Shown: positions 3,779-55,578 of the stretch, piece after piece
How the letters are laid out: the number at the start of each line of letters is the position of its first letter
Numbering within the stretch: position 1 is the stretch's first letter
DNA from: Candidatus Aenigmatarchaeota archaeon
GTDB lineage: Archaea; Aenigmatarchaeota; Aenigmatarchaeia; GW2011-AR5
Reading direction: 5' to 3'
Assembly (NCBI GenBank): GCA_016187335.1
Contig: JACPJW010000001.1
Location: forward strand, 404,170 to 468,169
Length of the DNA: 64,000 nucleotides
Notes under the pieces: model-generated
Told to the model about the DNA's origin: nothing
What the model saw: only the letters and a program-made list of their open reading frames with translations
The model's database searches: none
Translations under genes and position numbers: made by a program

Positions 3779-3804
3779 ATTTTTGATTAAACTTTTTAAA
3801 AAGT

Positions 3805-4947
3805 TCACCTGAACTTTCTCAGCTGCCCGCTTTTCTTGGCGGCTTCGTGCCTTTGTACCTTCCCGTATTTTTTCTTTATTTCCCGTTCCAGCTTGCCCAG
3901 AACATCCTGCGCAACGTCAAGAGGCTTCCAGCCCATTGAGTGAGACACGAAAAGCCCCAGCGGCGTGCCTATTCTCGCGCGCATCACATAGCGGATTTTC
4001 TTATCGCCACCGCCATGGTCGTTCTGCCTCTCTACATGAACAAAGAGATATTGTACGCTGTCCATCATCCTCCCGATTTTCTGGACAAATCTTGTTGTTG
4101 CCTCGTCCACGCCGGCAATCAGTTCGCTGCTTTCGCCGTGAAGCCCAGTGACTTGCACGTAAACCTGTTTTTTAGGGCCTGAAACGAGCAGTTCAAGGAT
4201 ATCCTTTGGGGTTATTATTCCCGGCTCGCCGTTCATGACGATAACTTCTTCGCTTTTCTGCAGTAAGTCCAAAGCCCTTTCCAGAGGAGAGTTTTCTTTC
4301 AGTATGGCAGCAGCATGCATGAAAGATTCCACGCCAGCACTTTCAGTGGACATCTTTTCGCTGGCGCCCCGCTCCTTTGTTTTTCCTCTCATCTCCATTT
4401 TTTCTTTTCCTTCGAGCAGCTTTATCATGTCCAGCGTCCCTACGACCCCGAGAACCTTTTGGCCGTCGATAACAGGGACGCGCGATACGTTTTTGTTGAA
4501 CATGATTTTTTTGACTTTCCCGGCATTGTCACCTTTCGACACGCACTCACACTTGACAGCAATATCCCCGCAGGTTTTCTTCGTGTTCATCAGTTTTGAT
4601 GCAACCTTGACAACATCATATTCGGAAACAATACCCACCAGATTCCCTTTGTCCACAACAGGAACAGCCCTTAATCCCGTGTTCAGTAGGAGTTCTATGA
4701 TTTTCTGCAAGTCATGCTCCGGCGAAGCAGTGGAAGTGCTCGTTACGTAGTTCTCAACCTTTGTTGACTGTATGTCTATGTCCTTTGTAACAATGTTTTT
4801 CAATTCAAGCAGCCCGAGAACATTCTTCCCTTCAACGACAGGAAGCCGGTGGATATTGTATTTTTTCATCTTGGCCAATGCCGTGTTCAATGTGTCGCCC
4901 CTTCCGCAGGTTATCACGTTTCTGGTCATGATTTCGCTTACTTTCAT
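3805..4947 (-). CDS. CBS-domain protein (tandem CBS pairs plus C-terminal domain)
   Basis: 380 aa; repeated CBS-like segments (RLPVV, RAVPVVD, RVPVID with hydrophobic cores). Confidence 0.7.
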   Translation of the reverse strand: MKVSEIMTRNVITCGRGDTLNTALAKMKKYNIHRLPVVEGKNVLGLLELKNIVTKDIDIQSTKVENYVTSTSTASPEHDLQKIIELLLNTGLRAVPVVDKGNLVGIVSEYDVVKVASKLMNTKKTCGDIAVKCECVSKGDNAGKVKKIMFNKNVSRVPVIDGQKVLGVVGTLDMIKLLEGKEKMEMRGKTKERGASEKMSTESAGVESFMHAAAILKENSPLERALDLLQKSEEVIVMNGEPGIITPKDILELLVSGPKKQVYVQVTGLHGESSELIAGVDEATTRFVQKIGRMMDSVQYLFVHVERQNDHGGGDKKIRYVMRARIGTPLGLFVSHSMGWKPLDVAQDVLGKLEREIKKKYGKVQRHEAAKKSGQLRKFR

Positions 4948-7743: not shown

Positions 7744-7980
7744 TGGGAAGGGAGGGATTTCCAGAACTTTTCATCGTTTTCCTCGAAGAACATCAGTTCT
7801 TCGGTATCTCGGAGAACTATCGTTCTCCGCAGATGATCGAACTTTTCTGAAAAGTTCGTTTGGACCCTCGACATTCCCGGCGTAGCACCAATCAAGTGCT
7901 ATGCTCCACGGTCTTCAGCCGTGTGCTCTCCCAGGCTTTGCCAACCGAAAAAATCATTCTCGGTTTTGAGCTACCTTCCC
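7744..7980 (-). tRNA. tRNA-Phe (anticodon GAA) with three putative introns (D-loop, variable loop, T-loop)
   Basis: Minus-strand acceptor GGGAAGG/CCTTCCC with discriminator A; D-stem GCTC/GAGC with AGCCUGGGA loop; anticodon arm CACGG-CUGAAGA-CCGTG; exons sum to about 73 nt; T-loop junction uncertain. Confidence 0.5.
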
Positions 7981-8402: not shown

Positions 8403-8521
8403 CGCCCCGGGACGGACTCGAACCGTCGACCTTCTGCAATTAGTCAAGAAATCCAAAAACTTGCTTGACTGTTAACAGCCAGACGCTTTAGGCGTCTATC
8501 TACCTGCTGAGCTACCAGGGC
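8403..8521 (-). tRNA. tRNA, anticodon unresolved, with D-arm intron and a second 27-nt hairpin intron
   Basis: Minus-strand 5' GCCCTGG TAGCTCAGCAGGTAG and 3' GACGG-TTCGAGT-CCGTC-CCGGGGC-G; removing a 19-nt hairpin restores D-stem GAGC; two parses give 73-nt exons but neither yields a canonical anticodon loop. Confidence 0.5.
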
Positions 8522-9431: not shown

Positions 9432-12146
9432 TTAATCCAGGAAATCGCCCTTCTTCAGCTTATTAGGAAGGTAGGTCTCGGACATGAACTTAAGGCCGCG
9501 GTGCGACAAAGCTTCTATCTCGGCTTTTATTCCTTTTTCTATCATCAGGTTGATTTCCTTCTTCCATCTCGGGTTCTTGCTAAACCACTCGTAGTTGAGT
9601 AGTTCCTTCGCGCGCTTTATGTCAACTTCCTTGCATTTTATTGTCGCTTTTTTCAGGTCATACTCAAATATATCCGATATAGTAAGACCTATGTATCTGG
9701 CTTCCGGTGTCGCAATCCGATCTGAGACGTGAGCTAGGCTTATGGATCCGGATTTGATAACTGAATAAATATAGAAGCCGTACGAATCACTGTCGCAGCA
9801 TACATATACAGGCAGCTTGTGATCTTGGTTCAGCCTTTGTATCAGCAGCCTTGTTCCGCGTGATGGCTGCCCGCCTGTGCCGATCAAAACGCACTTCTGT
9901 TTCTGCCAGAACTTGTCCTCATGAAGCCGCTCAAAGCCTGCGTTCTTCTCCACGACCAAGACAAAGTCCGCGTTGACTTTTTTGAAATCTATTTCATCCA
10001 CGGTGCTCGGTATGGACCATCCCCCGCTTCCGAGCTTTGACCAGTCTATGCTGTCGCCGCGGTCTTCAATAATAACGTTGCCGGCGACAATGCCCTTTCT
10101 GTCGGTGGTGAGGTGCAATTGCTCGCGCAGAACGTCTATAGCCACTTCTATGTCAACAATTATAGGGTCAGAATTATGTAGAATTATAAATCCATTACCA
10201 CCAATGAAATTCTCAGTAGGTTCGACTGAAAGATCAACTGTATATTCAGGAGTTGGAGCGTCATTTATTTCAACTATCTTGTCCCACATAATGTCACTAT
10301 TAGCTATGGTTTCAAGTTCGGATACCAGCTGTAAATCTGGAGAATACTTTTGTAACTGCATCAAGGCGTTATATAACACAGGTCTGCTTATCGATTCGTT
10401 TTTATTTTCTATATAACTCCATGAAAAGTGGTTCCATTCAACACGATCCTTACAGGACTTTCTGACTTTTTCTACCAATTTCCCTATGTTTGGTATCCTG
10501 TCAGAAGATACGTCGTGTTTCCGCGGCTTACTGAATCTTTTATCATTGATTATTTCAGCCATCAATTTTACATCTTCTCTATTACCTATTCTAATTTCAT
10601 ATGCGTTATGGTGATTAGGATTTTGGACGCTTCTTTTATAGCGATAAATTCTTGCAAAAATTCCAAGCCTAAGCAGTAAAAATACCAATCCGTTAGCCAG
10701 CTTTTCGCTAGTTGTGTGGTACCTTAATCTAAATTTTGGAAGAAAAGTACTACCGTCTCCAAGCATAAACGAGAAAAGAAACATCTGTATACAATTTTCA
10801 GGTGAATCAAGCAAAACACGCGGTATTTCTTTATTCCATGCTCTGCAAGGCTTATACCCAATAACATAAGTCAATATGTGACTCAAAGTATCGTAACCTA
10901 CATTTAGCTTATAAACTCCATCTTTACCTAAACGTATCTTTCCGCTTACACAGCTTTTACCAAATGATTTTTCAAAGCAAATCATAAACTGCTTGAGAAG
11001 CTCTGAAGATTTGTTAGAAATAGCTACATGGTATGATTTTCGTGGTTCAAAAAGTGAATGCGAGCCTTCGCTCAAAAGAAGCCCTAGTACAAATCCTAAA
11101 TTTTCATCTTTTTTTATTAAAGCGTTGTAATAGTTCTTTGCACCCCTTCTTCCAATTTTTATTTTAGGAAGCAGATCTGAAATATCAATTCCGGTCGTTT
11201 TTACGACTTTAATTGGAATTGTTTTCCAGTTAATCCAGTTGGCTTTAACGTCAGACCATACATTCTTGTATCCGAAGTCATTTGAAATATTTTTTAGCTT
11301 ATCATTACCTATAAGCCTGATTATTTCTTTTATCGTGTCTTTATCCGATTTTATGTAAAATTCTTTTAATACACTTTCAGGGCAATTTTCAATAAGCTTT
11401 TCTAAAATATTTATATGATCAGAATTAACACCGACTTCTATTTTTCTTGGGATGGCTATCCAGTCTCCTATCTTTAGTTCTGATGTTTTTATGGATACAG
11501 GTTTTCCTTCAGAATTTGTAAACAAGCTGTGAGATTTAGTTACTTTGACACGCCTGCCACTTGATGTGATTATTTCCTTTACAATGTTAGGCGGGTGTTT
11601 CATTACCATCAGAACTTTCTGCTCCTTAATCCTGTAATTTTCATCGAAAGCGCAAACCTTAATGTCGCCAACTAAAATCTTCTTTTTATTACCATCATCA
11701 TAAATAATTCTCCCAAATTTTTCAGCATGGTCTACGACTTCGCTTGCTTGAGCTATTCTGAGTTCATCGTTTATTCTTACCAACAAAGGTTCATCGGGGC
11801 ATACAGACTCGCTCTGCTCGTCAAAGGTATTCTCGTTGCTGTCCGGCAGTGTCCTTTTCAGGTTGTAGTACATGTCTCGGATGCTGGCATGGATTTTCTC
11901 ATCAATGAGCGATTTACAGAAAGCACCGACCATAAGCGTCTGCATGAACTTCTTGGAGTGCGCGACGTTGAAGTAATACCTTTTTGCTGTCTTGGTGCCA
12001 AGCCTGAGCTGGCCGGTTTTCCTGTCGTAAACTACGTTGGAAAGAGCGCGTATTGGTATCTCTATGTTCGGGTTCTCGCCTTTCTCTATGTCATGCACGA
12101 CTTTCTTGCCCAGAACATTCAGTTCCTTTCTTACGTCTTTTTCCAT
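9432..12146 (-). CDS. top6A: DNA topoisomerase VI subunit A (Spo11-like) interrupted by an intein
   Basis: 904 aa; extein N-part (IPIRALSNVVYD...RDMYY) and C-part (WSKLGSGGWSIPS, Toprim LIGTGGQPSRGTR) match Top6A; central 543 aa has intein/LAGLIDADG blocks. Confidence 0.85.
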   Translation of the reverse strand: MEKDVRKELNVLGKKVVHDIEKGENPNIEIPIRALSNVVYDRKTGQLRLGTKTAKRYYFNVAHSKKFMQTLMVGAFCKSLIDEKIHASIRDMYYNLKRTLPDSNENTFDEQSESVCPDEPLLVRINDELRIAQASEVVDHAEKFGRIIYDDGNKKKILVGDIKVCAFDENYRIKEQKVLMVMKHPPNIVKEIITSSGRRVKVTKSHSLFTNSEGKPVSIKTSELKIGDWIAIPRKIEVGVNSDHINILEKLIENCPESVLKEFYIKSDKDTIKEIIRLIGNDKLKNISNDFGYKNVWSDVKANWINWKTIPIKVVKTTGIDISDLLPKIKIGRRGAKNYYNALIKKDENLGFVLGLLLSEGSHSLFEPRKSYHVAISNKSSELLKQFMICFEKSFGKSCVSGKIRLGKDGVYKLNVGYDTLSHILTYVIGYKPCRAWNKEIPRVLLDSPENCIQMFLFSFMLGDGSTFLPKFRLRYHTTSEKLANGLVFLLLRLGIFARIYRYKRSVQNPNHHNAYEIRIGNREDVKLMAEIINDKRFSKPRKHDVSSDRIPNIGKLVEKVRKSCKDRVEWNHFSWSYIENKNESISRPVLYNALMQLQKYSPDLQLVSELETIANSDIMWDKIVEINDAPTPEYTVDLSVEPTENFIGGNGFIILHNSDPIIVDIEVAIDVLREQLHLTTDRKGIVAGNVIIEDRGDSIDWSKLGSGGWSIPSTVDEIDFKKVNADFVLVVEKNAGFERLHEDKFWQKQKCVLIGTGGQPSRGTRLLIQRLNQDHKLPVYVCCDSDSYGFYIYSVIKSGSISLAHVSDRIATPEARYIGLTISDIFEYDLKKATIKCKEVDIKRAKELLNYEWFSKNPRWKKEINLMIEKGIKAEIEALSHRGLKFMSETYLPNKLKKGDFLD
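10173..11801 (-). mobile_element. Intein with LAGLIDADG homing-endonuclease domain inside top6A
   Basis: Begins with Cys after ...DEQSESV, block B GRRVKVTKSHSLFT, LAGLIDADG-like LGFVLGLLLSEGS and FLFSFMLGDGS, ends GFIILHN followed by Ser; region is A/T-rich relative to exteins. Confidence 0.7.
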
Positions 12147-15392: not shown

Positions 15393-15473
15393 AACTTTTT
15401 CCTAAAAAGTTCTTTTTGATTAAACTTTTTCCTAAAAAGTTCTTTTTGATTAAACTTTTTCCTAAAAAGTTTA
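15393..15473. repeat. Tandem array (about 2.7 copies) of 30-bp unit AACTTTTTCCTAAAAAGTTCTTTTTGATTA
   Basis: Direct repeats read from sequence; each unit contains the palindrome AACTTTTT-CCT-AAAAAGTT; lies immediately upstream of the zinc-ribbon gene start. Confidence 0.85.
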
Positions 15474-16526
15474 GAAGAAGACCTTCCAGAACAACAGGCT
15501 CAATTCAAACTGATCGCCGCCAATTGATGAAAGGAGAGAGCTTTCCGAAAAAGACGGCGCCGGTGTTTTCTTGAAATTGTCCATTTTGTAATGTTCACCG
15601 GAAGCCCACATAAGCGCCGCCTTCGTAAGGTTCTTCGTCTCCTGCGCGCCCTGAGTGTCTTTTGCATAGTCGTATCCCGAAAACCACACGGTTCGCCCAT
15701 GGTTGTTCACAATGAACTGGTTTATCTTCACATAGGATATCTGGTTTCCTGGCGATGTTATTATAACGGACTTGTCCGTTACTTCAATCTGGTTTACGCC
15801 GCCGCCTGAAAATTCGCTGAATGCCGCGCTGGCGGGGTCTTTGCCAGTTAAGCCTCTGTAATATTTCGCTATCTTGTAAGAAACCTTTGAAGGCGTTACG
15901 GTGCTGTAAAATATTCCTTCGCCCCCGCCGCTCCCGGTCCACCTCAAATCAAAGACGCTGTTCATGAATCCGTCGCTTACCTGGTTTTCCGTCAGGTGCC
16001 CGAGCATGAATATTGTCCCGCCGCCGTCAAGGAAGCTGTTCAGCGCTGACATGTACGGATTGAGATTCTCATACCCGATTATGAAGGCAACGTCGGTCCG
16101 GGGGTTTATGTTGTTCAGGTTGTCGAGCCTCTGGATCCTCACGTCTATTTCCCTGTCCTTGTAGCCGAAGCGAAGAGGTGCAAGGAGAGATTCAAGGTCA
16201 TCTTTCTCTGTTTCACTGCAGAAGCATTCGACGTAAATTATGTCGTTGGGAATATCCCTGACTTCCAGCGAGAATTCTATGTTAGGGGGAAGGGTTTTCC
16301 TAAGGTCGTTGTTCAGCGAAGCTGCGTCATTGTTCTTCACATAGCCGGCAAGTTTGCCGCTTTTTTCCAAAGCAATAAGCGATTCCTTTGTCCTGGTGCT
16401 CAGAACCACGTCGTCCCACGAAGTCTGCTGCGTTGTGGGCAGGAAAAAATAGGATACTGAGGCTATGAGGATTATGGAAGCTATGATGGCTTCAAGCACC
16501 CTTATGAAACCTTTCATTATACCCAC
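15471..16526 (-). CDS. Pilin-like protein with class III (type IV pilin-like) signal peptide
   Basis: 351 aa; N-terminus MGIMKG-FIRVLEAIIASIILIASV (basic residues, Gly, hydrophobic helix). Confidence 0.5.
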   Translation of the reverse strand: MGIMKGFIRVLEAIIASIILIASVSYFFLPTTQQTSWDDVVLSTRTKESLIALEKSGKLAGYVKNNDAASLNNDLRKTLPPNIEFSLEVRDIPNDIIYVECFCSETEKDDLESLLAPLRFGYKDREIDVRIQRLDNLNNINPRTDVAFIIGYENLNPYMSALNSFLDGGGTIFMLGHLTENQVSDGFMNSVFDLRWTGSGGGEGIFYSTVTPSKVSYKIAKYYRGLTGKDPASAAFSEFSGGGVNQIEVTDKSVIITSPGNQISYVKINQFIVNNHGRTVWFSGYDYAKDTQGAQETKNLTKAALMWASGEHYKMDNFKKTPAPSFSESSLLSSIGGDQFELSLLFWKVFF

Positions 16527-16560
16527 CTTCGTCCTTGCTGCGACCCCATTTCATTTTTCA

Positions 16561-17058
16561 TCATGCGACGCCTACTTCTATGCTCACCCTTTCTTTGCTT
16601 TCCAAGACCCCGTATCTTTTCACGAGCGACTGCGGCAAAACAAGCGTAGCGACGGGCGGGGCGCAGTAAACATAAACCTCGTTTGTTTCCACGTTGGTTA
16701 TGTTTATGACGACAGCGAAATTGGGGTCGCCAGTTACCAGGTCCCTCACATTGTTGTAGTTATCGCTGCACATCCCCTTCAGGGCGTTTATTTTCTGCAT
16801 TGATATGACATATTTTTCCGGGGTTGACAGCCCGATTCTCTTCACGTTGCCGCTGTTCCAGTTTTTTGGTGCTCCCTCGTCCAGAAGAAGCGCTTCGGAC
16901 ATGGAAAAGCTTCTTGACCTCAGGGAAGATACCAGGGAGCCCTCGTGAAACTGCGGCACGTTGTTGGCCACGCTTATAATCAGAAAAAAAACCGTGCCTA
17001 AAAACACAAGGACAGAAATGATAAACTCTATGTTCACTACTCCCTTCATTTTGAACAC
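16561..17058 (-). CDS. Small pilin-like protein with class III signal peptide
   Basis: 165 aa; MFKMKG-VVNIEFIISVLVFLGTVFFLII. Confidence 0.45.
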   Translation of the reverse strand: MFKMKGVVNIEFIISVLVFLGTVFFLIISVANNVPQFHEGSLVSSLRSRSFSMSEALLLDEGAPKNWNSGNVKRIGLSTPEKYVISMQKINALKGMCSDNYNNVRDLVTGDPNFAVVINITNVETNEVYVYCAPPVATLVLPQSLVKRYGVLESKERVSIEVGVA

Positions 17059-17076
17059 CGATACGATTCTCTGTCT

Positions 17077-18027
17077 TCACGCGAACCCGGCTTTTATGAC
17101 CAGTACGAATATGAAGAAGCCGCTCAGCGTCATTATCAGGCTGTGCTTTATTCCCGCGGAAACGGAATCGGACACTATCTGGCCAGCTATAAGCCCGGAA
17201 AAGAATCCCTGGATGATTATCATGACAAGGAACAGCGAGCGGTAGTAAGACTCCGGCGCCTTTGCCGGGCCGAAATCAAGCGAGGACGAAACGCCCATGA
17301 ACAATGAGCATCCCAGGCATTCCGGGCTGTTCGACGAGATGCATGGCGTGCACGGGTTCGGGTTGAATTCCTGGAATATGCCGGCGATGCTTCCGCCTGT
17401 GCCGCCCGGCTGCAGGAGCGGTATAAGGAATTTGAGCAGCGCTATGCTGATTCCCAGGAATATGAAGAATATTGCGTACATCATAAGCACCTGCTGGTTA
17501 AGCAGGGAGGATTTTTCTTCCTGGACTTCCTTTATCATTTCAATGTTTTTCGCAAGCGACTCCATCGTATCTTCTATGCTGCCGCCGGATTTGTTCGCCT
17601 CATGGATTATCATTATGGACCTGACGATTATCCTGCTGTGCCTCATCCTTTTCGCCCAGTCATTGAGCACCTTTTCCAGCGGGATGTTCCAGCTGAGCTG
17701 GTTGTCTATCCTTTTTATCTCGGCGGTGAGCGGCCCGTAATCGGATTTTGCCGCGGATTTTATTGCCTGCAATACAGTAAGGCCAGCCCTTTGCGATTCC
17801 GACAAATCCCTGAGGAAGTTCGGGAACTCTTTTTCGTACGCCCGCACTTTCTTGAATTCAAAGAACCTGTAAAGGCTGTAAGGTATTGTCAGGACTGCAA
17901 GACCGATAAATACAAGGTTCAGCGCAAGAACTATGTCGCCGGAAAGGATTCCCATGGCCAGCAGGGAAATAAAAATAGCCGATGAAACCAGGATAATCTT
18001 CCTGCCATGGCTTAGTTTTTTCAGCAT
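17077..18027 (-). CDS. Pilus/secretion platform membrane protein (TadC/FlaJ-like, T2SS-F domain)
   Basis: 316 aa polytopic membrane protein with cytoplasmic helical domain; adjacent to TadB-like gene and secretion ATPase. Confidence 0.6.
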   Translation of the reverse strand: MLKKLSHGRKIILVSSAIFISLLAMGILSGDIVLALNLVFIGLAVLTIPYSLYRFFEFKKVRAYEKEFPNFLRDLSESQRAGLTVLQAIKSAAKSDYGPLTAEIKRIDNQLSWNIPLEKVLNDWAKRMRHSRIIVRSIMIIHEANKSGGSIEDTMESLAKNIEMIKEVQEEKSSLLNQQVLMMYAIFFIFLGISIALLKFLIPLLQPGGTGGSIAGIFQEFNPNPCTPCISSNSPECLGCSLFMGVSSSLDFGPAKAPESYYRSLFLVMIIIQGFFSGLIAGQIVSDSVSAGIKHSLIMTLSGFFIFVLVIKAGFA

Positions 18028-18033
18028 GATGAT

Positions 18034-18906
18034 CTACTCTTCTATAGGCGATATTGACTTTATCAAAAGGATAAAGCCCACGGAGATAAGCGGTATCAGT
18101 ATGAACACTATGAATGTCTGTATTGCTATCGTACCGAGTCCGCCCGAAAGCGCCGCCACTATTGACGACAGTATTATAAAAAATATTGAGCCGGTTATTA
18201 TCAGCGTCAGGTATATCTCCATGAACAGCGAAAGGTCCTGAGAATATTTTCTTATTTTTCTTCTGTACTCGCCCATAAGCTCTTCGGATTTCTTTTCAAG
18301 GTATTCCGCAAGGTTTCCCCCGGAAGAAGTGACGTTGTCTATGCCCCAGAAAAGCTCTCTCAACTCCGAGGACGGCGTCCTTCTGGCCTGCCTCCTCATG
18401 GCGTTTGAAAAAGTCATTCCGAACACTTCAACATTCTGGACTATTTCCCTTGCTTCCCTGCTCACTTCGCCGTACTCTTCAAAGCCTGCCAGCGTCCTGA
18501 AAGAGTCTATAGGCGGCAGACGCGACGAAGACATTGTGGCAAGGTATGAAACGGCGAAAGGCAGGGCCTTGTTAATCTTGCTGCTCCGGTTTTTCGATGC
18601 GGTCACGGGGTAAGAATAAAACAGGAAAAAAAGAATTCCCGACAGCGTAAAGGAAAGAGTGAGGCCAAGAATGATTGATGTCACAACAGGGAATCCCAGA
18701 AGCCCGAAGATGAAAGCGGACAGGGCTGCCTCAACGAGAAAGGTTACGGAAACGGCAAACAGCGCTATGGAAATGTATTCTTCCAACGTGTACTTGATGC
18801 CCGCCTTCTGCAAGTCGTCCTGCAAATCGCTCAGGTAATTCTTCAAGGACTTGCTGAGGCTGCCGAATATTTTGTAGGCAATAGCAGCATAATTAGGCAT
18901 ATTCAA
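18034..18906 (-). CDS. Pilus/secretion platform membrane protein (TadB/FlaJ-like, T2SS-F domain)
   Basis: 290 aa; TM helices flanking a cytoplasmic domain; start overlaps the ATPase stop. Confidence 0.6.
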   Translation of the reverse strand: MNMPNYAAIAYKIFGSLSKSLKNYLSDLQDDLQKAGIKYTLEEYISIALFAVSVTFLVEAALSAFIFGLLGFPVVTSIILGLTLSFTLSGILFFLFYSYPVTASKNRSSKINKALPFAVSYLATMSSSRLPPIDSFRTLAGFEEYGEVSREAREIVQNVEVFGMTFSNAMRRQARRTPSSELRELFWGIDNVTSSGGNLAEYLEKKSEELMGEYRRKIRKYSQDLSLFMEIYLTLIITGSIFFIILSSIVAALSGGLGTIAIQTFIVFILIPLISVGFILLIKSISPIEE

Positions 18907-20740
18907 TCCTCTGCAGCAAGAACTCGGGAGCAGTATAGAACAAATTGAATACGGAACCTAATTTCTGGTAGTCGTTGAGGTTTTTTTCAGCAGACCACTT
19001 CAGGACATTTGATTTTCTTTTTATGTCCTCGTTTATTTCTTCTTCTGATGCTCCGGTTGTTTCGGAGATTTTCTTAAGCAGCGAACTCTTGTTAACTACA
19101 GTGTAGGAATCATTTTTGGGGTTCCACCTGAAAACCTCGTTGGATACCACGGAATTGCTTCTCCTGTCGTACCCGAGGATTTCTATTACAGAAGAAATCC
19201 TCCTCTTGTAGACGCGTCCGTACTTCACCCTTTTGACGAATATTATCACGTCCAGGTTCTGTATAAGCCCTATAGGAAGGCTTATCGGCGGCGTTGAAAG
19301 CCTGTCCATAAGCTTGTTGAAATTTTCCGCATGTATTGTCGACAGGCCGGCATGGCCCACGGCCATCTGCTGGAAAAGAACGTACGCTTCGCGCCCGCGG
19401 ACCTCGCCGACGATTATGTAGTCAGGCCTCTGCCTCAGTGATTCTCTGAGCAATTCAAACATGTCAACCTTGCCTTCTTCCGACAGCGGAGTTCTTGCCA
19501 CTTCCGATATCCAGTGGGAATGCGGCAGCCTCAGTTCCGGCGTGTCCTCTATGCTCACTATTTTCATCTGCGGCTTGATGAACAGGGAAAGCGCGTTGAG
19601 GAGCGACGTCTTTCCGGTAGCAGTTCCCCCGGATATGAGCAGGCTCTGGTTGTGCTCTATAAGGTACCAGAAATACGAGAGCATCTTCAGGTCGCACGTC
19701 CCGAACTTTACCATGTCCACGGGTGTTAGCGGCTTTTCCGTGAACATTCTTATGGTGAAATTGCTGCCGTGCATTGCAACGTCGCTGCTCAGGGTTGCCT
19801 GGACCCTTGAGCCGTCGGGCAGCGCCCCGTCAAGGAGCGGCTTCGCGACAGAGATAAGCTTTCCGCACCTTTCGGCAAGCTTGTTTGCAAAGGAATCAAG
19901 GGAGTCCTTGTCGGAGAACTTTATGTTAGTCCTCATTGAGCCGAGCCGCGGGTCCCTGTGGTAAATAAAAATAGGGATGTTCATGCCGTCGCAGGATATG
20001 TCCTCTATCTGCTTGTCCTTCAGGAGGGGCTCTATTTTTTCCAGCCCGACAAAATCCCTTATAACGTAATACATGAGGACGTCTACATCCACGTCAGGCC
20101 CGGCGCGGAAATAAGAGAGCGCACCCTCAAATATTTTTTTGATGTAGCTCGTGGCGTCGCCCCTTACTTCCCCGAAGTTCACGTCAATCTTTTCCTGTAC
20201 ATACTCCTTTATTTCCCTGAGCAGCGCAGAGCTTTTCTCGTCAAGCTGCGGCTCAACAATGTCGTAGACAATTTCATTTATTTTCGGATTGAAGTAAATA
20301 TGGGCGTAAGCGAAGACGCGCTCGCCCTTTTTCGGCTCCGAGGGTATTAGCGGATATGTGATGTTGATTCTTCTCATCTCAATTGTTTCTTCAGTCATGC
20401 CGACGCTTTCAATAGTCGGGGACTCGGCGGTTTCAGGTATTTTTATCCCGCCTTTTACGAATTCCTTCATATCGTAATCTTCCGTCAGTATAACAGGTAT
20501 GGGGCCTGCCGGAAGCGCTGCAGCAGGCGGCGTTGAATACCCGCGGAATTCTGAAGAAGAATCAGGCTGCGAAGAATGCGGGCTGATATCCTGGGAAATT
20601 ATACCGGGTTGTTCTTTGGCTGGCTGGGTTTTCACTTTTAGCCTTATTTTCTTCAGGCCGGTGGAAGTTTTCATGGAAATTAACACGGTCTTTTCCGGCC
20701 ATGCTTCCTTTTTAGCGAGTTTTATCTTCATTCCAAACAC
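18893..20740 (-). CDS. Type IV pilus/archaellum-family secretion ATPase (FlaI/TadA/VirB11-like)
   Basis: 615 aa; Walker A LLISGGTATGKTSLLNAL, Walker B and His box region; low-complexity N-terminal extension. Confidence 0.85.
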   Translation of the reverse strand: MFGMKIKLAKKEAWPEKTVLISMKTSTGLKKIRLKVKTQPAKEQPGIISQDISPHSSQPDSSSEFRGYSTPPAAALPAGPIPVILTEDYDMKEFVKGGIKIPETAESPTIESVGMTEETIEMRRINITYPLIPSEPKKGERVFAYAHIYFNPKINEIVYDIVEPQLDEKSSALLREIKEYVQEKIDVNFGEVRGDATSYIKKIFEGALSYFRAGPDVDVDVLMYYVIRDFVGLEKIEPLLKDKQIEDISCDGMNIPIFIYHRDPRLGSMRTNIKFSDKDSLDSFANKLAERCGKLISVAKPLLDGALPDGSRVQATLSSDVAMHGSNFTIRMFTEKPLTPVDMVKFGTCDLKMLSYFWYLIEHNQSLLISGGTATGKTSLLNALSLFIKPQMKIVSIEDTPELRLPHSHWISEVARTPLSEEGKVDMFELLRESLRQRPDYIIVGEVRGREAYVLFQQMAVGHAGLSTIHAENFNKLMDRLSTPPISLPIGLIQNLDVIIFVKRVKYGRVYKRRISSVIEILGYDRRSNSVVSNEVFRWNPKNDSYTVVNKSSLLKKISETTGASEEEINEDIKRKSNVLKWSAEKNLNDYQKLGSVFNLFYTAPEFLLQRIEYA

Positions 20741-20748
20741 CAGAACGC

Positions 20749-21219
20749 TTACCCGCGCCTTATTTTTATTGTCTTCCCGTCCAAGTATATTTCTGCCCTG
20801 CCGGCTGTACTCAGGACCTCACCGCTCAGGCAGAAAATACCTTCAATACTACAATCTGTCTGGGCTATGTTAAATAGTTTTTGAGATACTTTTGTTTCCG
20901 GATCGCTGAAATCGTAAACTATAACGGAATCATCCTTGAGGGACACGACATAAACCTTTCCCGATATTTTATCCGGCAAACTTATCACTGCAGAAGAATT
21001 CTGGGCTGCTGTCCTGACAACGCCTGCTGCCACGACATCCCCGATGTTGCGGAAATGGTCCTTTGTGGAGACGCTGTTAAGCGATGCCTGTATTGTGCTG
21101 AAGCTGAGAGCAACATGGGCGGTTATCAGGACTCCTATGGCAAACAGTAGAACTTCGTTGACGACGAGATGCTGGCCCTTCATTCCCTTATTAAGAATAT
21201 TATTTTTCCTTTTTTTCAT
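20749..21219 (-). CDS. Pilin with class III signal peptide
   Basis: 156 aa; KGMKGQ-HLVVNEVLLFAIGVLITAHVALS (KGQ motif before hydrophobic helix). Confidence 0.6.
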   Translation of the reverse strand: MKKRKNNILNKGMKGQHLVVNEVLLFAIGVLITAHVALSFSTIQASLNSVSTKDHFRNIGDVVAAGVVRTAAQNSSAVISLPDKISGKVYVVSLKDDSVIVYDFSDPETKVSQKLFNIAQTDCSIEGIFCLSGEVLSTAGRAEIYLDGKTIKIRRG

Positions 21220-21261
21220 AAATATTCTTTATTGAGGCCGATAATAAAGATGCGGAATAAA

Positions 21262-21981
21262 TCAGATTAAGTCCAGATTTATGACGGTTTTTGTTATGAT
21301 CTTGCCGTTTTCTTCCGTTTCCGACGTGCCTTTGCTTTCAATTATGATTGAGTGGTCAAGGCCGGCGCTTTTGACCTGGTCTGAAGTGAGCACAAGAGAA
21401 TAAACCCTTATAGTCTGCGTTTTCAGCGGCACATATCGCAGCGTATAAGATGTCAGGTACTTGTTTTCGTCAAGCTTCACGCTCTTGACGCACAGGATGC
21501 CTGCGTCGTCAGAGCCCCATGCCCCTTCCGAAGCCGTGCACGTGCTGTTCTTCAGCGGTATCTCCGCGCCCGTGGCGTATATCGTCCCTTGCGTATCTGC
21601 GTCGAGCTGGATTACCCAGCCGTTCGGGCTGCTGTCTATTTTCACGATGCCTGACGCCGTGATTTTCAGCTGGTCTCGTCCGCCGGTGTTTGCAACTGTC
21701 TTTATCTTGCTGTCCAGGGTTTTCATGAACTGCTCGCTGCTCTGCAGCAGCGAGACGTCCTTGTTTTTCTGTATAAGGGGTATTCCCCAAAGATAGACGG
21801 ATCCCACGATGCCGATCAGTATCCCGCTCAGGAGTATCGCCGTGACAGCCTGTTCCTGGCCTTTAGAGGAGAAAAACCAAGGTTTTTCTCCCTCTACCCT
21901 CTTTTCCTTATTATTTTTTGATAGAACTTTTTTGTAAAAAGTTCTTCTCATTCCCTTATTAGAAATATTATTTGACATCAA
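21262..21981 (-). CDS. Pilin-like protein with class III signal peptide
   Basis: 239 aa; SSKGQEQAVTAILLSGILIGIVGSV; true start uncertain, an AACTTTTTT-AAAAAGTT palindrome sits in the first codons. Confidence 0.5.
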   Translation of the reverse strand: MMSNNISNKGMRRTFYKKVLSKNNKEKRVEGEKPWFFSSKGQEQAVTAILLSGILIGIVGSVYLWGIPLIQKNKDVSLLQSSEQFMKTLDSKIKTVANTGGRDQLKITASGIVKIDSSPNGWVIQLDADTQGTIYATGAEIPLKNSTCTASEGAWGSDDAGILCVKSVKLDENKYLTSYTLRYVPLKTQTIRVYSLVLTSDQVKSAGLDHSIIIESKGTSETEENGKIITKTVINLDLI

Positions 21982-22083: not shown

Positions 22084-22491
22084 TCACACTATGGGCGCGG
22101 CTGGCATTCTTGGTCTTGCCATTTTCTTGGACATCGCTGACATGAGGATGGCATTAACGCGCTTTTCTAATTTTGCCAGACGCTCGTCCATCTTCCTTTC
22201 AAGCTGTGGCGACTCTTCCTTTACTTCCTCGCCTTCTATCTCAACCCGTGCCATGAAATCATCCAGTCTTGCCGTCAGCGCGCTCACGGACTGAATAGTG
22301 CTGTTCACCCTGTCAACCATCTCCGAGTTGCTTTTCACTATTTCATCCACAATCTGCTGGTTTGTCTTGACTATTTCCATCAAATCCTTCATCAATTCCT
22401 CGGAACCGCCGGACCGCTCAATCTTGTCAACCCTTTTTTCCAGCCGCCTTACCGGATTCATAGGCACAAGCTCGTATTCGTCTTCTTCCAT
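22084..22491 (-). CDS. Coiled-coil hypothetical protein
   Basis: Start taken at MEEDEYELVP because the track N-terminus (ELFKKVLSK) is the translation of an upstream palindromic element. Confidence 0.45.
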   Translation of the reverse strand: MEEDEYELVPMNPVRRLEKRVDKIERSGGSEELMKDLMEIVKTNQQIVDEIVKSNSEMVDRVNSTIQSVSALTARLDDFMARVEIEGEEVKEESPQLERKMDERLAKLEKRVNAILMSAMSKKMARPRMPAAPIV

Positions 22492-22577
22492 GAACAATAC
22501 ACCACATATCCGTTTTGATAGAACTTTTTTGAAAAGTTCTCTTTTATTATATTTGCAAAAGCGGTATAAATAGGTTT

Positions 22578-22895
22578 TCACGATCTCAAAGAGCTTCGCT
22601 CTTTGAGAATGTCCCCGAAAGCCCGGCAGAAATATTCCTTTGCACGCATAACGGCTTTCTTGCCCTCAGGCGTCAGCGAGTACACAATTATTTTGCCCCT
22701 TTTATCCCCCTTTATGAGGCCCTTGCTTTTCATGTCCTTCAGCGCAGGGTATATCGTTCCTGCCTTGGGCTTCTCGCCCCGGCGCTTCCCTATCTCCCCG
22801 GCAAGCTGCTCGCCGTTCATCTCCTTCTTTGACAGAAGCCATAAAACCTGGAAGGACAGCATCCCCCGCATGTCGCAGCCGTGATCATGTTTCAT
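22578..22895 (-). CDS. PadR-family transcriptional regulator
   Basis: Winged-helix core GEKPKAGTIYPALKDMKSKGLI; start taken at an internal Met (MKHDHG or MRGMLSFQ). Confidence 0.65.
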   Translation of the reverse strand: MKHDHGCDMRGMLSFQVLWLLSKKEMNGEQLAGEIGKRRGEKPKAGTIYPALKDMKSKGLIKGDKRGKIIVYSLTPEGKKAVMRAKEYFCRAFGDILKERSSLRS

Positions 22896-22931
22896 AGCAA
22901 TTATAGGGCATCCTATATATTTAAATACATG

Positions 22932-22948
22932 ACCGATACATAATATCG
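22932..22948. promoter_or_regulatory. Inverted repeat CCGATA-CATAA-TATCGG, candidate PadR operator
   Basis: In the ~80 bp spacer between divergent PadR and LUD-domain genes, flanked by two ATCCTATAT copies. Confidence 0.35.
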
Positions 22949-22975
22949 GATATCCTATATGCAGGAAGTGATGAA

Positions 22976-23578
22976 ATGGCGTTTGACAAATTGGGAAGCG
23001 ATGAAAGCATTGAAAAGGCTGTGGCTTCCTTGAAAGCCAACGGCATAGAAGCCTTTGTGGTTGAGAACGGCGAGCAGGCAAAGCAGAAAGCCCTGGAAAT
23101 GATACCGGAGGGTGCGGAAGTGATGAACATGACCTCCGTCACGCTTGATGCAATCGGCTTGACGGAAGAAATAATGTCTGGAAGGAATTCCGTCCGCAAA
23201 AAACTTATGAGCATGGACAGGACCAAGCATGGCAGCGAGATGAAAAAACTGGGGATTGCGCCTGATTACGCTGTCGGAAGCGTCCACGCCATTACCGAAG
23301 ACGGCAAGGTGCTTATCGCTTCCGCTTCCGGGAGCCAGCTTCCCGCTTACGCTTACGGGGCAGGCAAGGTTATCTGGATAGCAGGCACCCAGAAGATTGT
23401 GAAAAATCTGGAGGAAGGCATGAAGCGGATTTATGAGTATACATTGCCGCTGGAGGACCAGAGGGCGAGGATAGCATACGGCGTCGGGAGCGGCGTCAAC
23501 AAACTGCTGGTTGTAAACAAAGAATTCGCGCCCGGAAGGATAACCCTGATACTAGTGAAAGAAAAGCTCGGTTTCTGA
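22976..23578 (+). CDS. LUD-domain (YkgG/LutC-like) protein
   Basis: 200 aa; overall pattern consistent with lactate-utilisation LutC-like DUF162 fold. Confidence 0.6.
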   Translation: MAFDKLGSDESIEKAVASLKANGIEAFVVENGEQAKQKALEMIPEGAEVMNMTSVTLDAIGLTEEIMSGRNSVRKKLMSMDRTKHGSEMKKLGIAPDYAVGSVHAITEDGKVLIASASGSQLPAYAYGAGKVIWIAGTQKIVKNLEEGMKRIYEYTLPLEDQRARIAYGVGSGVNKLLVVNKEFAPGRITLILVKEKLGF

Positions 23579-23951: not shown

Positions 23952-25598
23952 TTACTCCATGTCCATGTCTTCGCCGCCGGGCATTCCGCCAGGGCCGCCT
24001 CTCGGCATGCCGCCGCCGGACTTTGACGTTATGACGTCGTCTATGCGCAGTATCATTTCCGCCGCTTCCGTTGCGGACTTGATGGCCTGCGTCTTTATCT
24101 TCAGCGGCTCGACGACGCCGTTCTTCTTCATATCCTCTACTTTTCCGTTGACAACATCTATGCCGTAAGCGGATTTTCCTTTGTCGTGCAGCGTCCTTAA
24201 CTCTACAAGAAGATCAATAGGATCGCGTCCAGTGCTTTCAGCCAGCGTTCTTGGAATTATTTCAACAGCCTCGGCAAACGAATTTATTGCCAGCTGTTCT
24301 CTTCCGCCGACGGATTCTGCGTATTCCCTGAGCTTGCGGGCGATCTCTATCTCTACGGCTCCGCCGCCGTAGACAACCTTGCCTACTTCCAGGGCAGAAA
24401 TAACACCCAGGACTGCGTCGTCCATTGCGCGCTTCGCCTCGTCAACAACATGCTCCGTTCCGCCGCGCACAAGAATGCTTACTGATTTAGGATCCTTGCA
24501 GTCGCGGACAAAGATCATCTCTTCGCCGGCAATCTTCTGCTCCTCAACTAATCCGGCATAGCCTAAATCATCCTTTGATATCTCTTCCAGGTTCGAAACG
24601 ATGTTGGCGCCCGTGGCTTTTGCCAGCTTTTCCATGTCGCTTTTCTTCACGCGCCTTGCAGCTATAGTGCCTTCCTTGGCAAGATAATGCTGCGCTAAAT
24701 CATCAATGCCTTTCTGGCAGAAAACAACATTGCATCCTGTCGCTGACACCTTCTTTACCATTTCCTTGAGCATCTTTGTTTCCTGCTCGAGAAACGCCTG
24801 AAGCTGGTCAGGTGATGTTATTCTTATTTCCGCGTTCGTTTCGGTTTCCTTTACCTCCAGAGCCACATCCAGCAGCACTATTTTCGCATCCTTGACGCGC
24901 TTTGGCATGTTAGGATGCACAACTTCCTTGTCAATGACAATTCCCTTTATCAGTTCCGTGTCGTCAATTGAGCCGCCCTGCTTCTTCTCTATTTTCACAT
25001 CGTCCTTGTCGATGACAACCTTGCCGTTGTCCTGTTCCGCGACCATCTTGACAGCTTCAACGGCTAATTTCGCCAGGGATTCCTTTGCCGCTTCGCCGCC
25101 CTTCCCTGTCATTGCTGTCATCGCTATTTTCTGCAGCATTTCCGTGTCATTAATGTCAATGTCTTCGCCTATTTCCTGCAAAACTTCCAGCGCTTTTGTC
25201 TTCGAAAGCCTGTAACCCCTTACGATCATCGTGGGATGTATTTCCTGCTCCAGAAGACCCTCTGCTTTCTTCAGCAATTCACCAGCAAGAATTACTGCCG
25301 TGGTCGTGCCGTCGCCGACCTCGTCTTCCTGCGTCTTCGCCACTTCAACAATCATCTTTGCGGCAGGATGCTCTATTTCCATGTCCTCCAGTATTGTCGC
25401 GCCGTCGTTGGTTATGGTGACGTCACCTATAGAATTAACAAGCATCTTGTCCATGCCGCGCGGGCCCAGCGTAGTCCTTACAGACTCAGCAACGGCTTTC
25501 GCTGCCATTATGTTGCGCGACTGCGCGTCCCTTCCAGTGTTCCTCAAAGTGCCTTCCGGCAGGATGAATATAGGCTGTCCGCCAAGCTGGTTCACCAT
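23952..25598 (-). CDS. ths: Thermosome subunit (group II chaperonin)
   Basis: 548 aa; [27 protein letters not shown] and C-terminal GGMPGG repeats. Confidence 0.95.
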
Positions 25599-25750
25599 TT
25601 CAAATACACCTCGTTAATAGAATTTCTTTCCATGCACGCTTTCATTTTTGACGCAACTTTTTCCTAAAAGTTGCCGTATACTTTCATGCACATACATAGA
25701 AGAAGCTAATCTTTAAAAGGGTTGCGGTGCGGCTTAGCGTGTCACACAAT

Positions 25751-27332: not shown

Positions 27333-27491
27333 GGGCCGGTAGCTCAGTGGTAGAGCACCTGTCTTATACGACGTGTTTTCTTAATTGGAAAAAGAAAACA
27401 TTGCTAAGCCAGCAGGGGGTCGAGAGTCCGATACAAACTTTTCCAAAAAGTTTGATCAAAAGGGAAAGTTGCGGAATCCTCTCCCGGCCCA
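27333..27491 (+). tRNA. tRNA-Ile (anticodon UAU) with anticodon-loop intron and T-loop intron
   Basis: GGGCCGG-TA-GCTC-AGTGGTA-GAGC-A-CCTGT-CTTATA then ~42-nt intron, A-GCAGG; 3' end CTCTC-CCGGCCC-A; exons sum to about 72 nt; T-loop junction ambiguous. Confidence 0.6.
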
Positions 27492-28827: not shown

Positions 28828-28940
28828 GGGCTTGTAGTCTAGAGACCCTTTAGAAAAAGCGTCTACGAAAAGGGTTGGAAAATGGTTATGACGTCGCCTT
28901 CACACGGCGAAGGTCGGCGGTTCGAATCCGCCCGAGCCCA
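28828..28940 (+). tRNA. tRNA-Val (anticodon CAC) with 40-nt D-loop intron
   Basis: GGGCTTG-TA-GTCT-AG [intron 28843-28882] TGGTTA-TGAC-G-TCGCC-TTCACAC-GGCGA-AGGTC-GGCGG-TTCGAAT-CCGCC-CGAGCCC-A; exons sum to 73 nt. Confidence 0.8.
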
Positions 28941-51832: not shown

Positions 51833-53170
51833 ATGAGGAAATATCTGTTATCAATAGTCCTGCTGCTGCTTTCGTCTGTACCTGTTTTTGCAGTGGGCAA
51901 CCTCACGGTTTTCAGCGTTCCTTTATCACAGCCGGCTGTCTACGCAAACACCAACCAGTCCGTTAACGTCCTTAACCTGACCCTGAACGTGACGGCGGGC
52001 AGCGGCGCGGACGGCGTCATCAACATAACTGTCATCAATATTACGGTGACCAACAGCAGCGAAGGCAACCTGTCAGCGGGCAATATATCAGCGGTTGAGG
52101 TCAGGAACAGCACGGGGTTCCCGATAGCAAGGAACACAACAGTCAATCCTGCAAACAACATGACGTTCACGATTTCAATCCCGGGAGGGCTGACCATAAA
52201 CACATCTAATGCGACCATATGGATTGCCATCAACATATCAAGGTCGGCGGCGCGCTTCCTGAACATATCAGTGAACATAACGGGTCCCGGGGAAATAGGC
52301 ACGAACAGCTCTGTGAACAATATCACGATATCAGGCGTTTCAATAAAGTCAAACGGCGTGCAGATACAGAATTTACATTCAAACTCAACAATATCGCCGC
52401 GCTTTGTGGACACGGGCGTTGAGAACCAGTCGTTCACTTACACCTTGGTTCCGCCGACTGGAACGGATGCAATAAAGAACGTCAGTATTTCGTTCCCGGC
52501 CAATTACACCTTGTCCAAGCTCATTTCAATAATGGTTGGCGGCGGCGTCCCGGACGGCGCGACAAACAATACAGCCGTCAACGGCATAAACATTTCCCTG
52601 AGCACGGCCACGACCCAGACAATACAGGTAAACTTCACCGCCAACACTTCCGTCAATCCTATCCAGAACAGGGCGTTCTCATCAACCCTGGACGGAGGAA
52701 ACCTCTCTGCCGTGTCAACTGATCCCACGCTGGAAGGGGTGAATGTAAGCACACAGCCCATACTGAACCTTACGAACGTCACCCTGGTAAAAAGCACTGC
52801 AATAATCAACGGCACCGATTACTGGGAATTCAATTTCACTTTGAATTACACTGCCAACATATCAACAGGAGGCCTGATTCAGTTCAGGCTCACGGACTGG
52901 AACACTTCTTCCGGCAGCACGCTTGCATTGAACAATTCATTGTGCGATGGCAGCAGGTGCGCGTCCCTGAGGAACGAGACAACCATGAACACCACAGGGA
53001 AATTCAACATAACGAATGATTACGAATCTTTCACAAAGGGAATCACCATATCGTCCATAACACAGGGCACCCTGACAATACTGGTCTTGAGAATGGTAAT
53101 ACCTTCAAATGCCCCGACATCATCCAACTGGCAGGCTGCTTACGGATTTTTGTTCAGGTCAAGCCCTTGA
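51833..53170 (+). CDS. Secreted surface protein, extremely N-glycosylation-sequon rich
   Basis: 445 aa; signal peptide MRKYLLSIVLLLLSSVPVFA; about 40 N-x-S/T sequons counted by hand. Confidence 0.6.
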   Translation: MRKYLLSIVLLLLSSVPVFAVGNLTVFSVPLSQPAVYANTNQSVNVLNLTLNVTAGSGADGVINITVINITVTNSSEGNLSAGNISAVEVRNSTGFPIARNTTVNPANNMTFTISIPGGLTINTSNATIWIAINISRSAARFLNISVNITGPGEIGTNSSVNNITISGVSIKSNGVQIQNLHSNSTISPRFVDTGVENQSFTYTLVPPTGTDAIKNVSISFPANYTLSKLISIMVGGGVPDGATNNTAVNGINISLSTATTQTIQVNFTANTSVNPIQNRAFSSTLDGGNLSAVSTDPTLEGVNVSTQPILNLTNVTLVKSTAIINGTDYWEFNFTLNYTANISTGGLIQFRLTDWNTSSGSTLALNNSLCDGSRCASLRNETTMNTTGKFNITNDYESFTKGITISSITQGTLTILVLRMVIPSNAPTSSNWQAAYGFLFRSSP

Positions 53171-53191: not shown

Positions 53192-54403
53192 ATGGATTAT
53201 CGCCTTTCAATACTTTTAGCTGCGGCATGCCTGCTTCTGCTGTCCTTCGTTTCCAGAGGAGAAACAACCGGCAATGTAAGCATCTCAACGCAGGGAAATA
53301 TTTCCCCGTCAACAGGGGTTTACGGATATGTAGCTCCCGGCGGATGCAACAGCAACGCGGAGTGCTACGACTATAAATGCTTCCAGGATTTTTTGGTGCC
53401 ATCCGGAAACAAGACCGGCAGGTGCGACGTCCCGGCAACCACAAAATGCTTTCACAGCGGGACAGGCTATTCAACCGGCACTTATTATTGCTCGGCTAAC
53501 ACATCGTATTACCGGTGCGATACAGGCGGCAACGGAAGCTGGACAGGCGCGTTTTCGTGCTCGTCAGGCCAGACGTGTTCTGTTGATAGTACGTCGTCTT
53601 CAGCCCCTTGCTCAACATCGTCGCCTTCAAGCAGCTCAAGCAGCAGCGGAGGCGGAGGCACAGCAATAAAGAAAGCCTCTGTCCAGCTTGTCTCGGGCAT
53701 AGCCGGCTTTGAAATTTATCAGGAGGAAGATGTCAACAAAACGGTTATCGTGAAAAACAACGGCGATTATGTCCTTGGCAATGTCTACCTTGACATACAG
53801 GGAATTCCTTTTGCTTCCGTCCTTACGGGCAGCAGCGAGATCAATTTGTCAAAAAATTACAACTTCACCGTGTCTTTCATGCCCAAAAACTCTACTGAAA
53901 TCAGGACGTACCCCGCCAATGCAACGGTTTATACCAACTTCACCAATACGACGGCAAACTTTTCCTTCACAGTCAAAGTACTCCCAAGCAACAGGACCGT
54001 TTCAGAGTCAATCATTCCCGCGTACGCAGAATATATCAACCTTTCTCTGGAATACGAAAAGAACGTAACGGCCCTGGAAAAGGAAGGGCATAACCTCACG
54101 GATGCGAGGGCGATTCTTACGACAATAAAGGCAAAGATGCAGGACATCAACCAGTCGATATCCAAGAAGGACTACTTTTCTGCTGCATCCCAGATCAGCG
54201 AGGTGAAGGTTCTTTTTGATGAGCTCCAGAAAACCATTTCAAAATCCGAAAAGCCGAAAGGAACGGATATAATAATTTATCTGGCCGTCGCCGCTGCCAT
54301 TCTGGTGGCAGTTATTCTGGCCTACCTTCTGTGGCCGTCAAAGCAGCAAAGAAGAGTTTTTCAGGGCCAGCAGTATTCGCAAGCAGCAGTAATTAAGCAA
54401 TAG
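53192..54403 (+). CDS. Surface protein with Cys-rich N-domain, Ser-rich linker and C-terminal TM anchor
   Basis: 403 aa; signal peptide, Cys-rich segment, poly-Ser stretch, many sequons, C-terminal hydrophobic helix IIIYLAVAAAILVAVILAYLLW. Confidence 0.6.
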   Translation: MDYRLSILLAAACLLLLSFVSRGETTGNVSISTQGNISPSTGVYGYVAPGGCNSNAECYDYKCFQDFLVPSGNKTGRCDVPATTKCFHSGTGYSTGTYYCSANTSYYRCDTGGNGSWTGAFSCSSGQTCSVDSTSSSAPCSTSSPSSSSSSSGGGGTAIKKASVQLVSGIAGFEIYQEEDVNKTVIVKNNGDYVLGNVYLDIQGIPFASVLTGSSEINLSKNYNFTVSFMPKNSTEIRTYPANATVYTNFTNTTANFSFTVKVLPSNRTVSESIIPAYAEYINLSLEYEKNVTALEKEGHNLTDARAILTTIKAKMQDINQSISKKDYFSAASQISEVKVLFDELQKTISKSEKPKGTDIIIYLAVAAAILVAVILAYLLWPSKQQRRVFQGQQYSQAAVIKQ

Positions 54404-55518: not shown

Positions 55519-55578
55519 AAGAAAAAATTCTTTTGATATTTTTTAAAGCTTATAACGAACGGGAGCGAACACATATGC

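Follow-up and report, generated by a model that had tools for sequence, protein, structure and literature searches.

We analysed a 64,000-nucleotide stretch of an archaeal genome contig (JACPJW010000001.1), hereafter called the window, and studied a minus-strand operon of eight genes located between positions 15471 and 22491 of this stretch. We conclude that the operon probably serves to assemble a surface filament of the type IV pilus-like (Tad/Epd-like) kind in a very small archaeon of the Aenigmarchaeota that probably depends on a host. The observations were made at the level of gene content, motifs, synteny and folds. One protein of the locus, p351, is 100% identical to HYW26_02525 from a Candidatus Aenigmarchaeota metagenome-assembled genome, and hence the host is a DPANN archaeon. 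Loci of this type are known from earlier publications on DPANN archaea, Aenigmarchaeota among them, and the modestly new part is p351. What we add is a gene-by-gene assignment, a downstream pair of class III proteins inside the conserved block and the fold of p351.

A first-pass annotation of the sequence had placed seven same-strand genes at 15471-21981. All seven open reading frames (ORFs) are present at those coordinates on the minus strand, with intergenic gaps of -14 to +42 nt. However, the conserved block comprises eight genes, as the gene for a coiled-coil protein (CCP; 22084-22491, minus strand, 135 aa) lies upstream and had not been counted. Its start, ATG 22491, was inferred from the N-termini of the orthologues (MEDEYELIP...). 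Continuing on the minus strand, the CCP gene is followed by two prepilin-like genes, p239 (21262-21981, 239 aa; likely start ATG 21951, giving 229 aa) and p156 (20749-21219, 156 aa; likely start ATG 21183, giving 144 aa), and by the gene of an assembly ATPase of the PilB/GspE/ArlI/TadA superfamily (18893-20740, 615 aa). Then come platform protein 1 (18034-18906, 290 aa) and platform protein 2 (17077-18027, 316 aa), the N-terminal and C-terminal halves of FlaJ/TadC, respectively. The block closes with two class III-type genes, p165 (16561-17058, 165 aa; likely start ATG 17049, giving 162 aa) and p351 (15471-16526, 351 aa; likely start ATG 16517, giving 348 aa). The MKG methionines at 16517, 17049 and 21183 are probably the true starts of p351, p165 and p156, because the orthologues keep the MKG start and the genes called independently on this organism's contigs agree (348, 162 and 612 aa). 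The 3' boundary of the operon is marked by a triple palindrome at 15393-15471 (AACTTTTTCCTAAAAAGTT, three tandem 30-nt copies) between the stop of p351 and the start of NMD3.

A class III signal peptide has a short charged leader with K or R at -2 and G or A at -1, followed by a hydrophobic helix of about 20 aa. At the predicted sites all four putative prepilins (p239, p156, p165 and p351) carry these features, and in each of them K-G precedes a strongly hydrophobic helix, in agreement with the earlier description of two pilin-like KGQ genes and two MKG-motif proteins. With a slash for the predicted cleavage site, the N-terminus of p239 reads SSKG/QEQAVTAILLSG (cleavage at SSKG/QEQ), that of p156 MKG/QHLVVNEVLLFAIG (beginning MKG/QHLVV), that of p165 MKG/VVNIEFIISVLVF (beginning MKG/VVNIEF, with Glu at +5) and that of p351 MKG/FIRVLEAIIASIIL (beginning MKG/FIRVLEAIIAS). 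We then applied a class III rule, K or R followed by G and a hydrophobic 16-mer within the first 60 residues, to all window ORFs of at least 100 aa. Only 5 of the 118 ORFs satisfied this rule; four are the genes of the locus and the fifth looks spurious. A six-frame class III scan of the window for additional small pilin genes, down to 45 aa, yielded none beyond the four. The motifs are also kept within the families. The p351 alignment has an invariant G6 and E12, with MKG at the start of nearly all sequences, and most members of the p239 family begin with MKGQ. The orthologues of p156 start with MKGQY... or MKRTKGQH..., and KG/xxxxEF is kept in the p165 orthologues of two relatives, L004 and L006, at 34-36% identity. 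Szabo and colleagues are said to have described in 2007 EppA-type pilins with Gln at +1, and the KG/Q context observed here is similar.

For the ATPase we obtained Pfam matches to T2SSE (9.7e-34) and to a C-terminal PilB3_C domain (27.1 bits). Its best solved relative in the PDB is A. fulgidus GspE (2oap) with 372 bits (3.5e-110), compared to 267 bits (3e-78) for S. acidocaldarius FlaI, 148 bits (4e-42) for the Tad ATPase CpaF and about 62 bits for VirB11. Against the NCBIfam FlaI model the protein scored 401 bits, which is under the cut-off of 550. The Walker A motif (GGTATGKTS), the Asp box (IEDTPEL), the Walker B motif (DYIIVGEVRG) and the His box (GHAGLSTIHA) are all readable. Judged by match scores, the ATPase groups with the archaeal pilus and archaellum ATPases. 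Residues 1 to about 115 form a short basic beta-like motif and then a low-complexity Pro/Ser/Gln linker; L004 and L006 have this linker too, although its sequence is poorly conserved. On the gene calls of the same organism there is a faint UCP018868 match.

Both platform proteins belong to the T2SSF family, with E-values of 2.1e-19 for platform protein 1 and 7.9e-15 for platform protein 2. Platform protein 1 aligns to positions 13-248 of 555 in the ArlJ/FlaJ profile and platform protein 2 to positions 288-451 of 555 and 193-379 of 465 in the ArlJ profiles. According to these alignments the two genes together are one FlaJ, split as in the Tad systems and in archaeal pilus clades 1 and 2. The two proteins share no significant similarity when compared with each other, and hence the split is old. 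Platform protein 1 is 57-60% identical to its orthologues. The matches in Pfam, NCBIfam and the PDB agree with the initial naming of a secretion ATPase and two T2SS-F-type membrane proteins, and the locus therefore holds two of the components by which type IV filament systems are recognised, a T2SSE-family ATPase with all four boxes and a T2SSF-family platform.

The gene order CCP, p239, p156, ATPase, TadC-N, TadC-C, p165, p351 is kept in four relatives (L004, L006, L011 and L013), with protein identities across their eight-gene blocks of 34-64%. The p351 orthologues of L004 and L006 are only 35-40% identical and the full order of the block is still kept. In these two relatives a thermosome gene lies directly upstream of the operon. 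Searching the genome contigs with the ATPase returned one true relative, L001 (60% identity); two bacterial contigs from the same search were false leads.

We studied the proteins encoded upstream of the ATPase gene by family profiles and structure models. In the p239 family 19 of 25 members match DUF7289, with a best E-value of 1.4e-6. The AlphaFold2 model of p239 (mean predicted local distance difference test, pLDDT, of 84.5) displays an N-terminal helix of 60 residues followed by an all-beta domain, i.e. a 'lollipop' shape. It has no significant relative among solved structures; a pilin fold is consistent with the model and is at this stage unproven. For p156 we observed sub-threshold DUF7266 matches in the window protein and in all four orthologues tested, and these matches reach past the transmembrane helix. 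Taken at the level of profile matches, the pilin-like families are remotely related to three archaeal families, DUF7289, DUF7266 and DUF7288. The CCP has neither a transmembrane segment nor a signal peptide, and Pfam gives weak coiled-coil matches only. Its orthologues in L004 and L006 are 47-48% identical and lie directly upstream of the pilin genes, and the gene has the same position in L011 and L013.

Of the two class III proteins encoded downstream, p165 has no Pfam or NCBIfam family and is a candidate minor pilin. For p351 the domain search proposed in the first-pass annotation found no Pfam model for the family, and the fold was instead assigned from a structure model. This model is of high confidence (pLDDT 88, predicted TM-score 0.81), and its ectodomain has a class I glutamine amidotransferase-like (GATase1-like) fold of the ThuA/GldG/IFT52 (GIFT) type. 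The sequence identity to the structural relatives is 8-16%, and the family profile gave no match to PDB sequences. In relatives of p351 the GATase1-like domain weakly matches DUF4350 and ABC_transp_aux, a family of the GldG type, and the first 100 or so residues match DUF7288. We counted 623 family representatives at E ≤ 1e-3 and 126 at E ≤ 1e-30, and every sampled member with an organism name comes from Aenigmarchaeota. No His is conserved in the family alignment and hence a Cys-His-Glu triad cannot be conserved either. On this ground we rejected an enzymatic role as a class I glutamine amidotransferase; the protein more likely binds a partner or has a structural task than acts as a catalyst. 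We liken the ectodomain to the non-catalytic GATase1-like domains of the ThuA-like, GldG, IFT52 'GIFT' and OST48 proteins. To our knowledge no protein of this group has been described with a class III signal peptide or in a pilus operon. We regard p351 as a candidate tip adhesin.

Based on these results we propose the following mechanism. The precursors of p239, p156, p165 and p351 would enter the membrane via their class III signal peptides, and an A24 prepilin peptidase encoded elsewhere would trim all four after the conserved Lys-Gly. A hexameric ATPase of the PilB/GspE/ArlI type, docked on the two half-size FlaJ/TadC platform proteins, would then pull the subunits out of the membrane, and these would polymerise via their N-terminal hydrophobic helices. 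The likeliest fibre subunits are the KG/Q proteins encoded upstream of the ATPase, p239 and/or p156. The other two, p165 and p351, are likely minor or tip subunits that may prime or cap the fibre, with p351 presenting its non-catalytic GATase1/GldG/IFT52-like domain as an adhesin module. The CCP would act as a conserved cytoplasmic accessory protein, scaffold or regulator. From the analogy to known pili we infer cleavage, polymerisation, the identity of the major subunit and the adhesive role; adhesion to surfaces or to host cells is the probable function.

Several points weigh against a pilus. Every Pfam link of the pilin-like proteins is under the gathering threshold. None of the four N-termini fits what we take to be the strict FlaFind hexamer, and the leader of p239 is unusually long with at least 31 aa. 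Furthermore, no A24 prepilin peptidase was detected among the six polytopic ORFs of the 64-kb window that were scanned with Pfam (candidates had to reach 100 aa and to have three or more predicted transmembrane segments; two short ones with three segments, 52504-52815 and 55214-55546, were left out). These six ORFs matched EamA, VIT1 and an MscS-like helix, and three had no family. The scan bears out the earlier statement that the window holds no prepilin peptidase, and none was found in the flanks of L004 and L006 either. The first-pass annotation had further called the locus a complete candidate adhesive-pilus system. The gene content supports such a system, but the word 'complete' has to be dropped, as the peptidase is absent from the window and no major pilin could be pinned down. 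The same annotation held that its interpretation would fail if no class III sites were predicted and the ATPase grouped with unrelated secretion families. We found four class III-type N-termini and an ATPase nearest to archaeal GspE.

There are several other possible explanations for the locus. It is very unlikely that the genes encode an archaellum for rotary motility instead of an adhesive pilus. In its favour, the FlaI motor model is the best NCBIfam match of the ATPase (401 bits), both platform halves are recognised by ArlJ/FlaJ models and one filament gene is labelled 'FlaF' in Hamm et al. 2024 (PMC11291902). However, the FlaI score remains below the 550-bit cut-off of the model, A. fulgidus GspE, which is not archaellar, is closer to the ATPase (372 bits) than FlaI is (267 bits) and FlaJ comes in two pieces, as Makarova et al. 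(PMC4858521) describe for pilus clades 1 and 2. Moreover, none of the eight locus proteins matched Arch_flagellin, FlaH/ArlH, FlaF/FlaG or FlaC/D/E/X in Pfam and NCBIfam, the remainder of the window having been scanned in part. We rejected an archaellum identity, as the locus has no recognisable archaellin, ArlH, ArlF/G or ArlC/D/E/X, no single ArlJ and no FlaI score at the equivalog level.

The main rival is a bindosome-like or pseudopilus system that, instead of making a long adhesive fibre, would display class III proteins, chiefly the globular p351, on the cell surface for the capture or uptake of nutrients, glycans or DNA from a host. Like the binding proteins of the Sulfolobus bindosome, p351 combines a large globular part with a class III N-terminus, and an import of DNA or nutrients has been suggested for DPANN pili (PMC9563170). 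The window also has a single ATPase, and no small pilin in it stands out as an abundant major subunit, though p239 and p156 are of typical pilin size and p239 is of typical pilin shape. The ATPase and both platform halves do match the BasE and BasF models (2e-61, 1.3e-10 and 4.4e-5), but these matches are much weaker than those to FlaI/ArlJ and GspE and lie far below the levels of a Sulfolobus-type Bas system (BasE 208 bits against a cut-off of 1000; BasF 40 and 22 bits against 1300). The GATase1/GldG-like fold is unlike that of known transporter substrate-binding proteins, and no ABC transporter or substrate-binding protein genes were found beside the locus. Overall, we consider an uptake system unlikely. 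A decaying, non-functional remnant, or partly an artefact of gene calling, is the explanation to which we give the least credence. It would account for the lack of a peptidase nearby, for the odd long leader of p239 with its repeat-like palindromes and for the fact that p239 as called has no exact copy in the protein collection (the best match is 96% identical). On the other hand the eight ORFs are intact and tightly spaced, their order and sequence are kept down to 35% identity and the catalytic motifs are intact. Such conservation in the reduced genomes of DPANN archaea argues for function. The pilus-like filament is thus the explanation that we retain.

The leader-coding region of p239 also contains a 52-nt ultra-conserved block (21864-21915, minus strand) just before the KGQ codons, with a perfect 11+11 palindrome or hairpin at 21868-21891. 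The block recurs in L011 (2706-2760) and L013 (about 375-430) and is identical at the DNA level in all three, save for 2 bases at its centre; the coding DNA on either side diverges. The central 2-base change keeps the palindrome and turns Trp into Arg. The mature p239 pilins of the three species are only about 49% identical, and the RNA fold of the leader hairpin has a z-score of -3.1. DNA identity amid diverging surroundings suggests a function at the nucleotide level, that is a cis-regulatory DNA or RNA element. A metagenome scan with the 24-nt leader palindrome led to one further Aenigmarchaeota pilin locus, L013; two other matches, L012 and L014, were unrelated bacterial intergenic hairpins, chance hits of a terminator-like kind. 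The 5' ends of both KG/Q genes share a 26-nt direct repeat with 92% identity (21180-21205 and 21948-21973; ..AAATAATATT[C/T]T.AATAAGGGAATG). In p156 the KGQ codons come directly after the ATG; in p239 the ATG and KGQ are separated by about 87 nt, in which the palindromes are located. A more speculative idea, possible in our view and rather doubtful, is that p351 is a tip adhesin which reads glycans on the host-cell surface and sets the host range of the DPANN archaeon, and that the palindrome in the p239 leader is a nucleotide-level switch for piliation, acting as an operator or an RNA hairpin.

A second palindrome, AACTTTT-N(0-5)-AAAAGTT (core AGAACTTTTT..AAAAAGTTCT), occurs in 10 copies in the window compared to 0.01 expected. 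The copies are located at 3790-3805, 7840-7856, 15393-15471 (three copies, the triplet at the end of the operon), 21925-21943, 22522-22538, 25655-25672, 27436-27452 and 57221-57237. All of them are intergenic or at the 5' ends of genes, and one lies between two convergent genes. The sites include the upstream regions of the thermosome gene, the CCP gene and NMD3, and one copy is inside the p239 leader. The more distantly related L004 and L006 lack this palindrome, which may represent an operator, a promoter element, a bidirectional terminator or a small palindromic repeat element. Independent short-read assemblies (L008-L010) break at the triple copy. A sigma-70 promoter and terminator scan was uninformative, the host being an archaeon.

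Between the operon and the thermosome gene (23952-25598), a group II chaperonin gene near the pilus operon, lie a gene for a PadR-family regulator (22578-23081, minus strand) and a LUD-domain gene (22976-23578, plus strand). In L004 and L006 neither gene is found at this place. A distance of 40 nt separates the end of the PadR gene from the palindrome that lies upstream of the CCP gene, so PadR may regulate the operon.

The window also contains the genes for topoisomerase VI (Topo VI) and aIF-1A, along with NMD3 and the thermosome gene. The gene for Topo VI subunit A (9432-12146, minus strand) encodes 904 aa compared to 358 aa in L004 and L006, and in L004 a separate LAGLIDADG_3 ORF comes after it. 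An intein or a homing-endonuclease insertion seems to be present in the window copy. Two adjacent plus-strand ORFs at 51833-53170 (445 aa) and 53192-54403 (403 aa) have signal-like hydrophobic N-termini and no Pfam family, and the latter also has a C-terminal transmembrane anchor; they may encode surface or S-layer-like proteins. Rfam identified tRNA genes at 8403-8521, 28872-28940 and 56405-56509. Two of these (119 and 105 nt) exceed the standard length, which suggests that they contain introns.

DPANN archaea are thought to need physical contact with a host, and type IV pili are the leading candidate for making this contact. Their pilus subunits are mostly unannotated 'dark matter', and the locus is a clean, complete-looking example from Aenigmarchaeota. 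It offers exact gene boundaries and four assignable class III proteins, with p351 as a concrete target for studies of host binding. The general understanding of archaeal type IV pili is unchanged by it.

Finally, we compared the locus to known systems. With the bacterial Tad/Flp pilus it shares two separate T2SS-F platform proteins, a single ATPase and an adhesive function, the last of these being probable here, and CpaF is the third-best solved relative of the ATPase (4e-42). It differs in that we see no Flp-type small pilins, TadV, TadZ, RcpA secretin or outer membrane, and in that the ATPase is much nearer to archaeal GspE and FlaI. The locus also resembles the euryarchaeal pili of clades 1 and 2 (M. 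maripaludis Epd; H. volcanii PilB3-PilC3; PMC4858521) in several respects. Makarova, Koonin and Albers (2016; PMC4858521) described euryarchaeal type IV pilus systems with two tadC genes and several distinct pilins, and in the window we likewise observed two tadC-like genes, an ATPase of the VirB11 superfamily and several class III pilin-like genes. The PilB3_C domain on the ATPase and the apparent remote kinship of the pilin-like proteins to DUF7266, DUF7288 and DUF7289 point in the same direction. In contrast to those systems, the pilin family matches here are all under the Pfam thresholds, and an EppA-type peptidase, FleN/MinD, a DUF2341 adhesin and an S-layer-like gene were not seen with Pfam in the eight locus proteins, part of the window and the flanks of the relatives.

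DPANN pilus loci had already been noted by Makarova et al. (2019; PMC6393860), with pilins that were unrecognisable 'dark matter'. Hamm et al. (2024, Nat Commun; PMC11291902) describe two type IV pilus-like loci that are conserved in cluster-2 DPANN, and name Aenigmarchaeota. Their Locus 1 consists of CCP, FlaF/PilA-like filament proteins, CpaF and TadC beside a GroEL-type chaperonin; the text of the paper considered here says nothing of a class III pair further downstream or of the GATase1-like domain seen in p351. The genome studied here also has the LUD-domain and PadR genes inserted between the thermosome gene and the operon. We likened the two loci by gene content and position. On that basis the operon corresponds to Locus 1: it has the same gene set, and its pilus genes lie directly downstream of CCP and near a thermosome gene.

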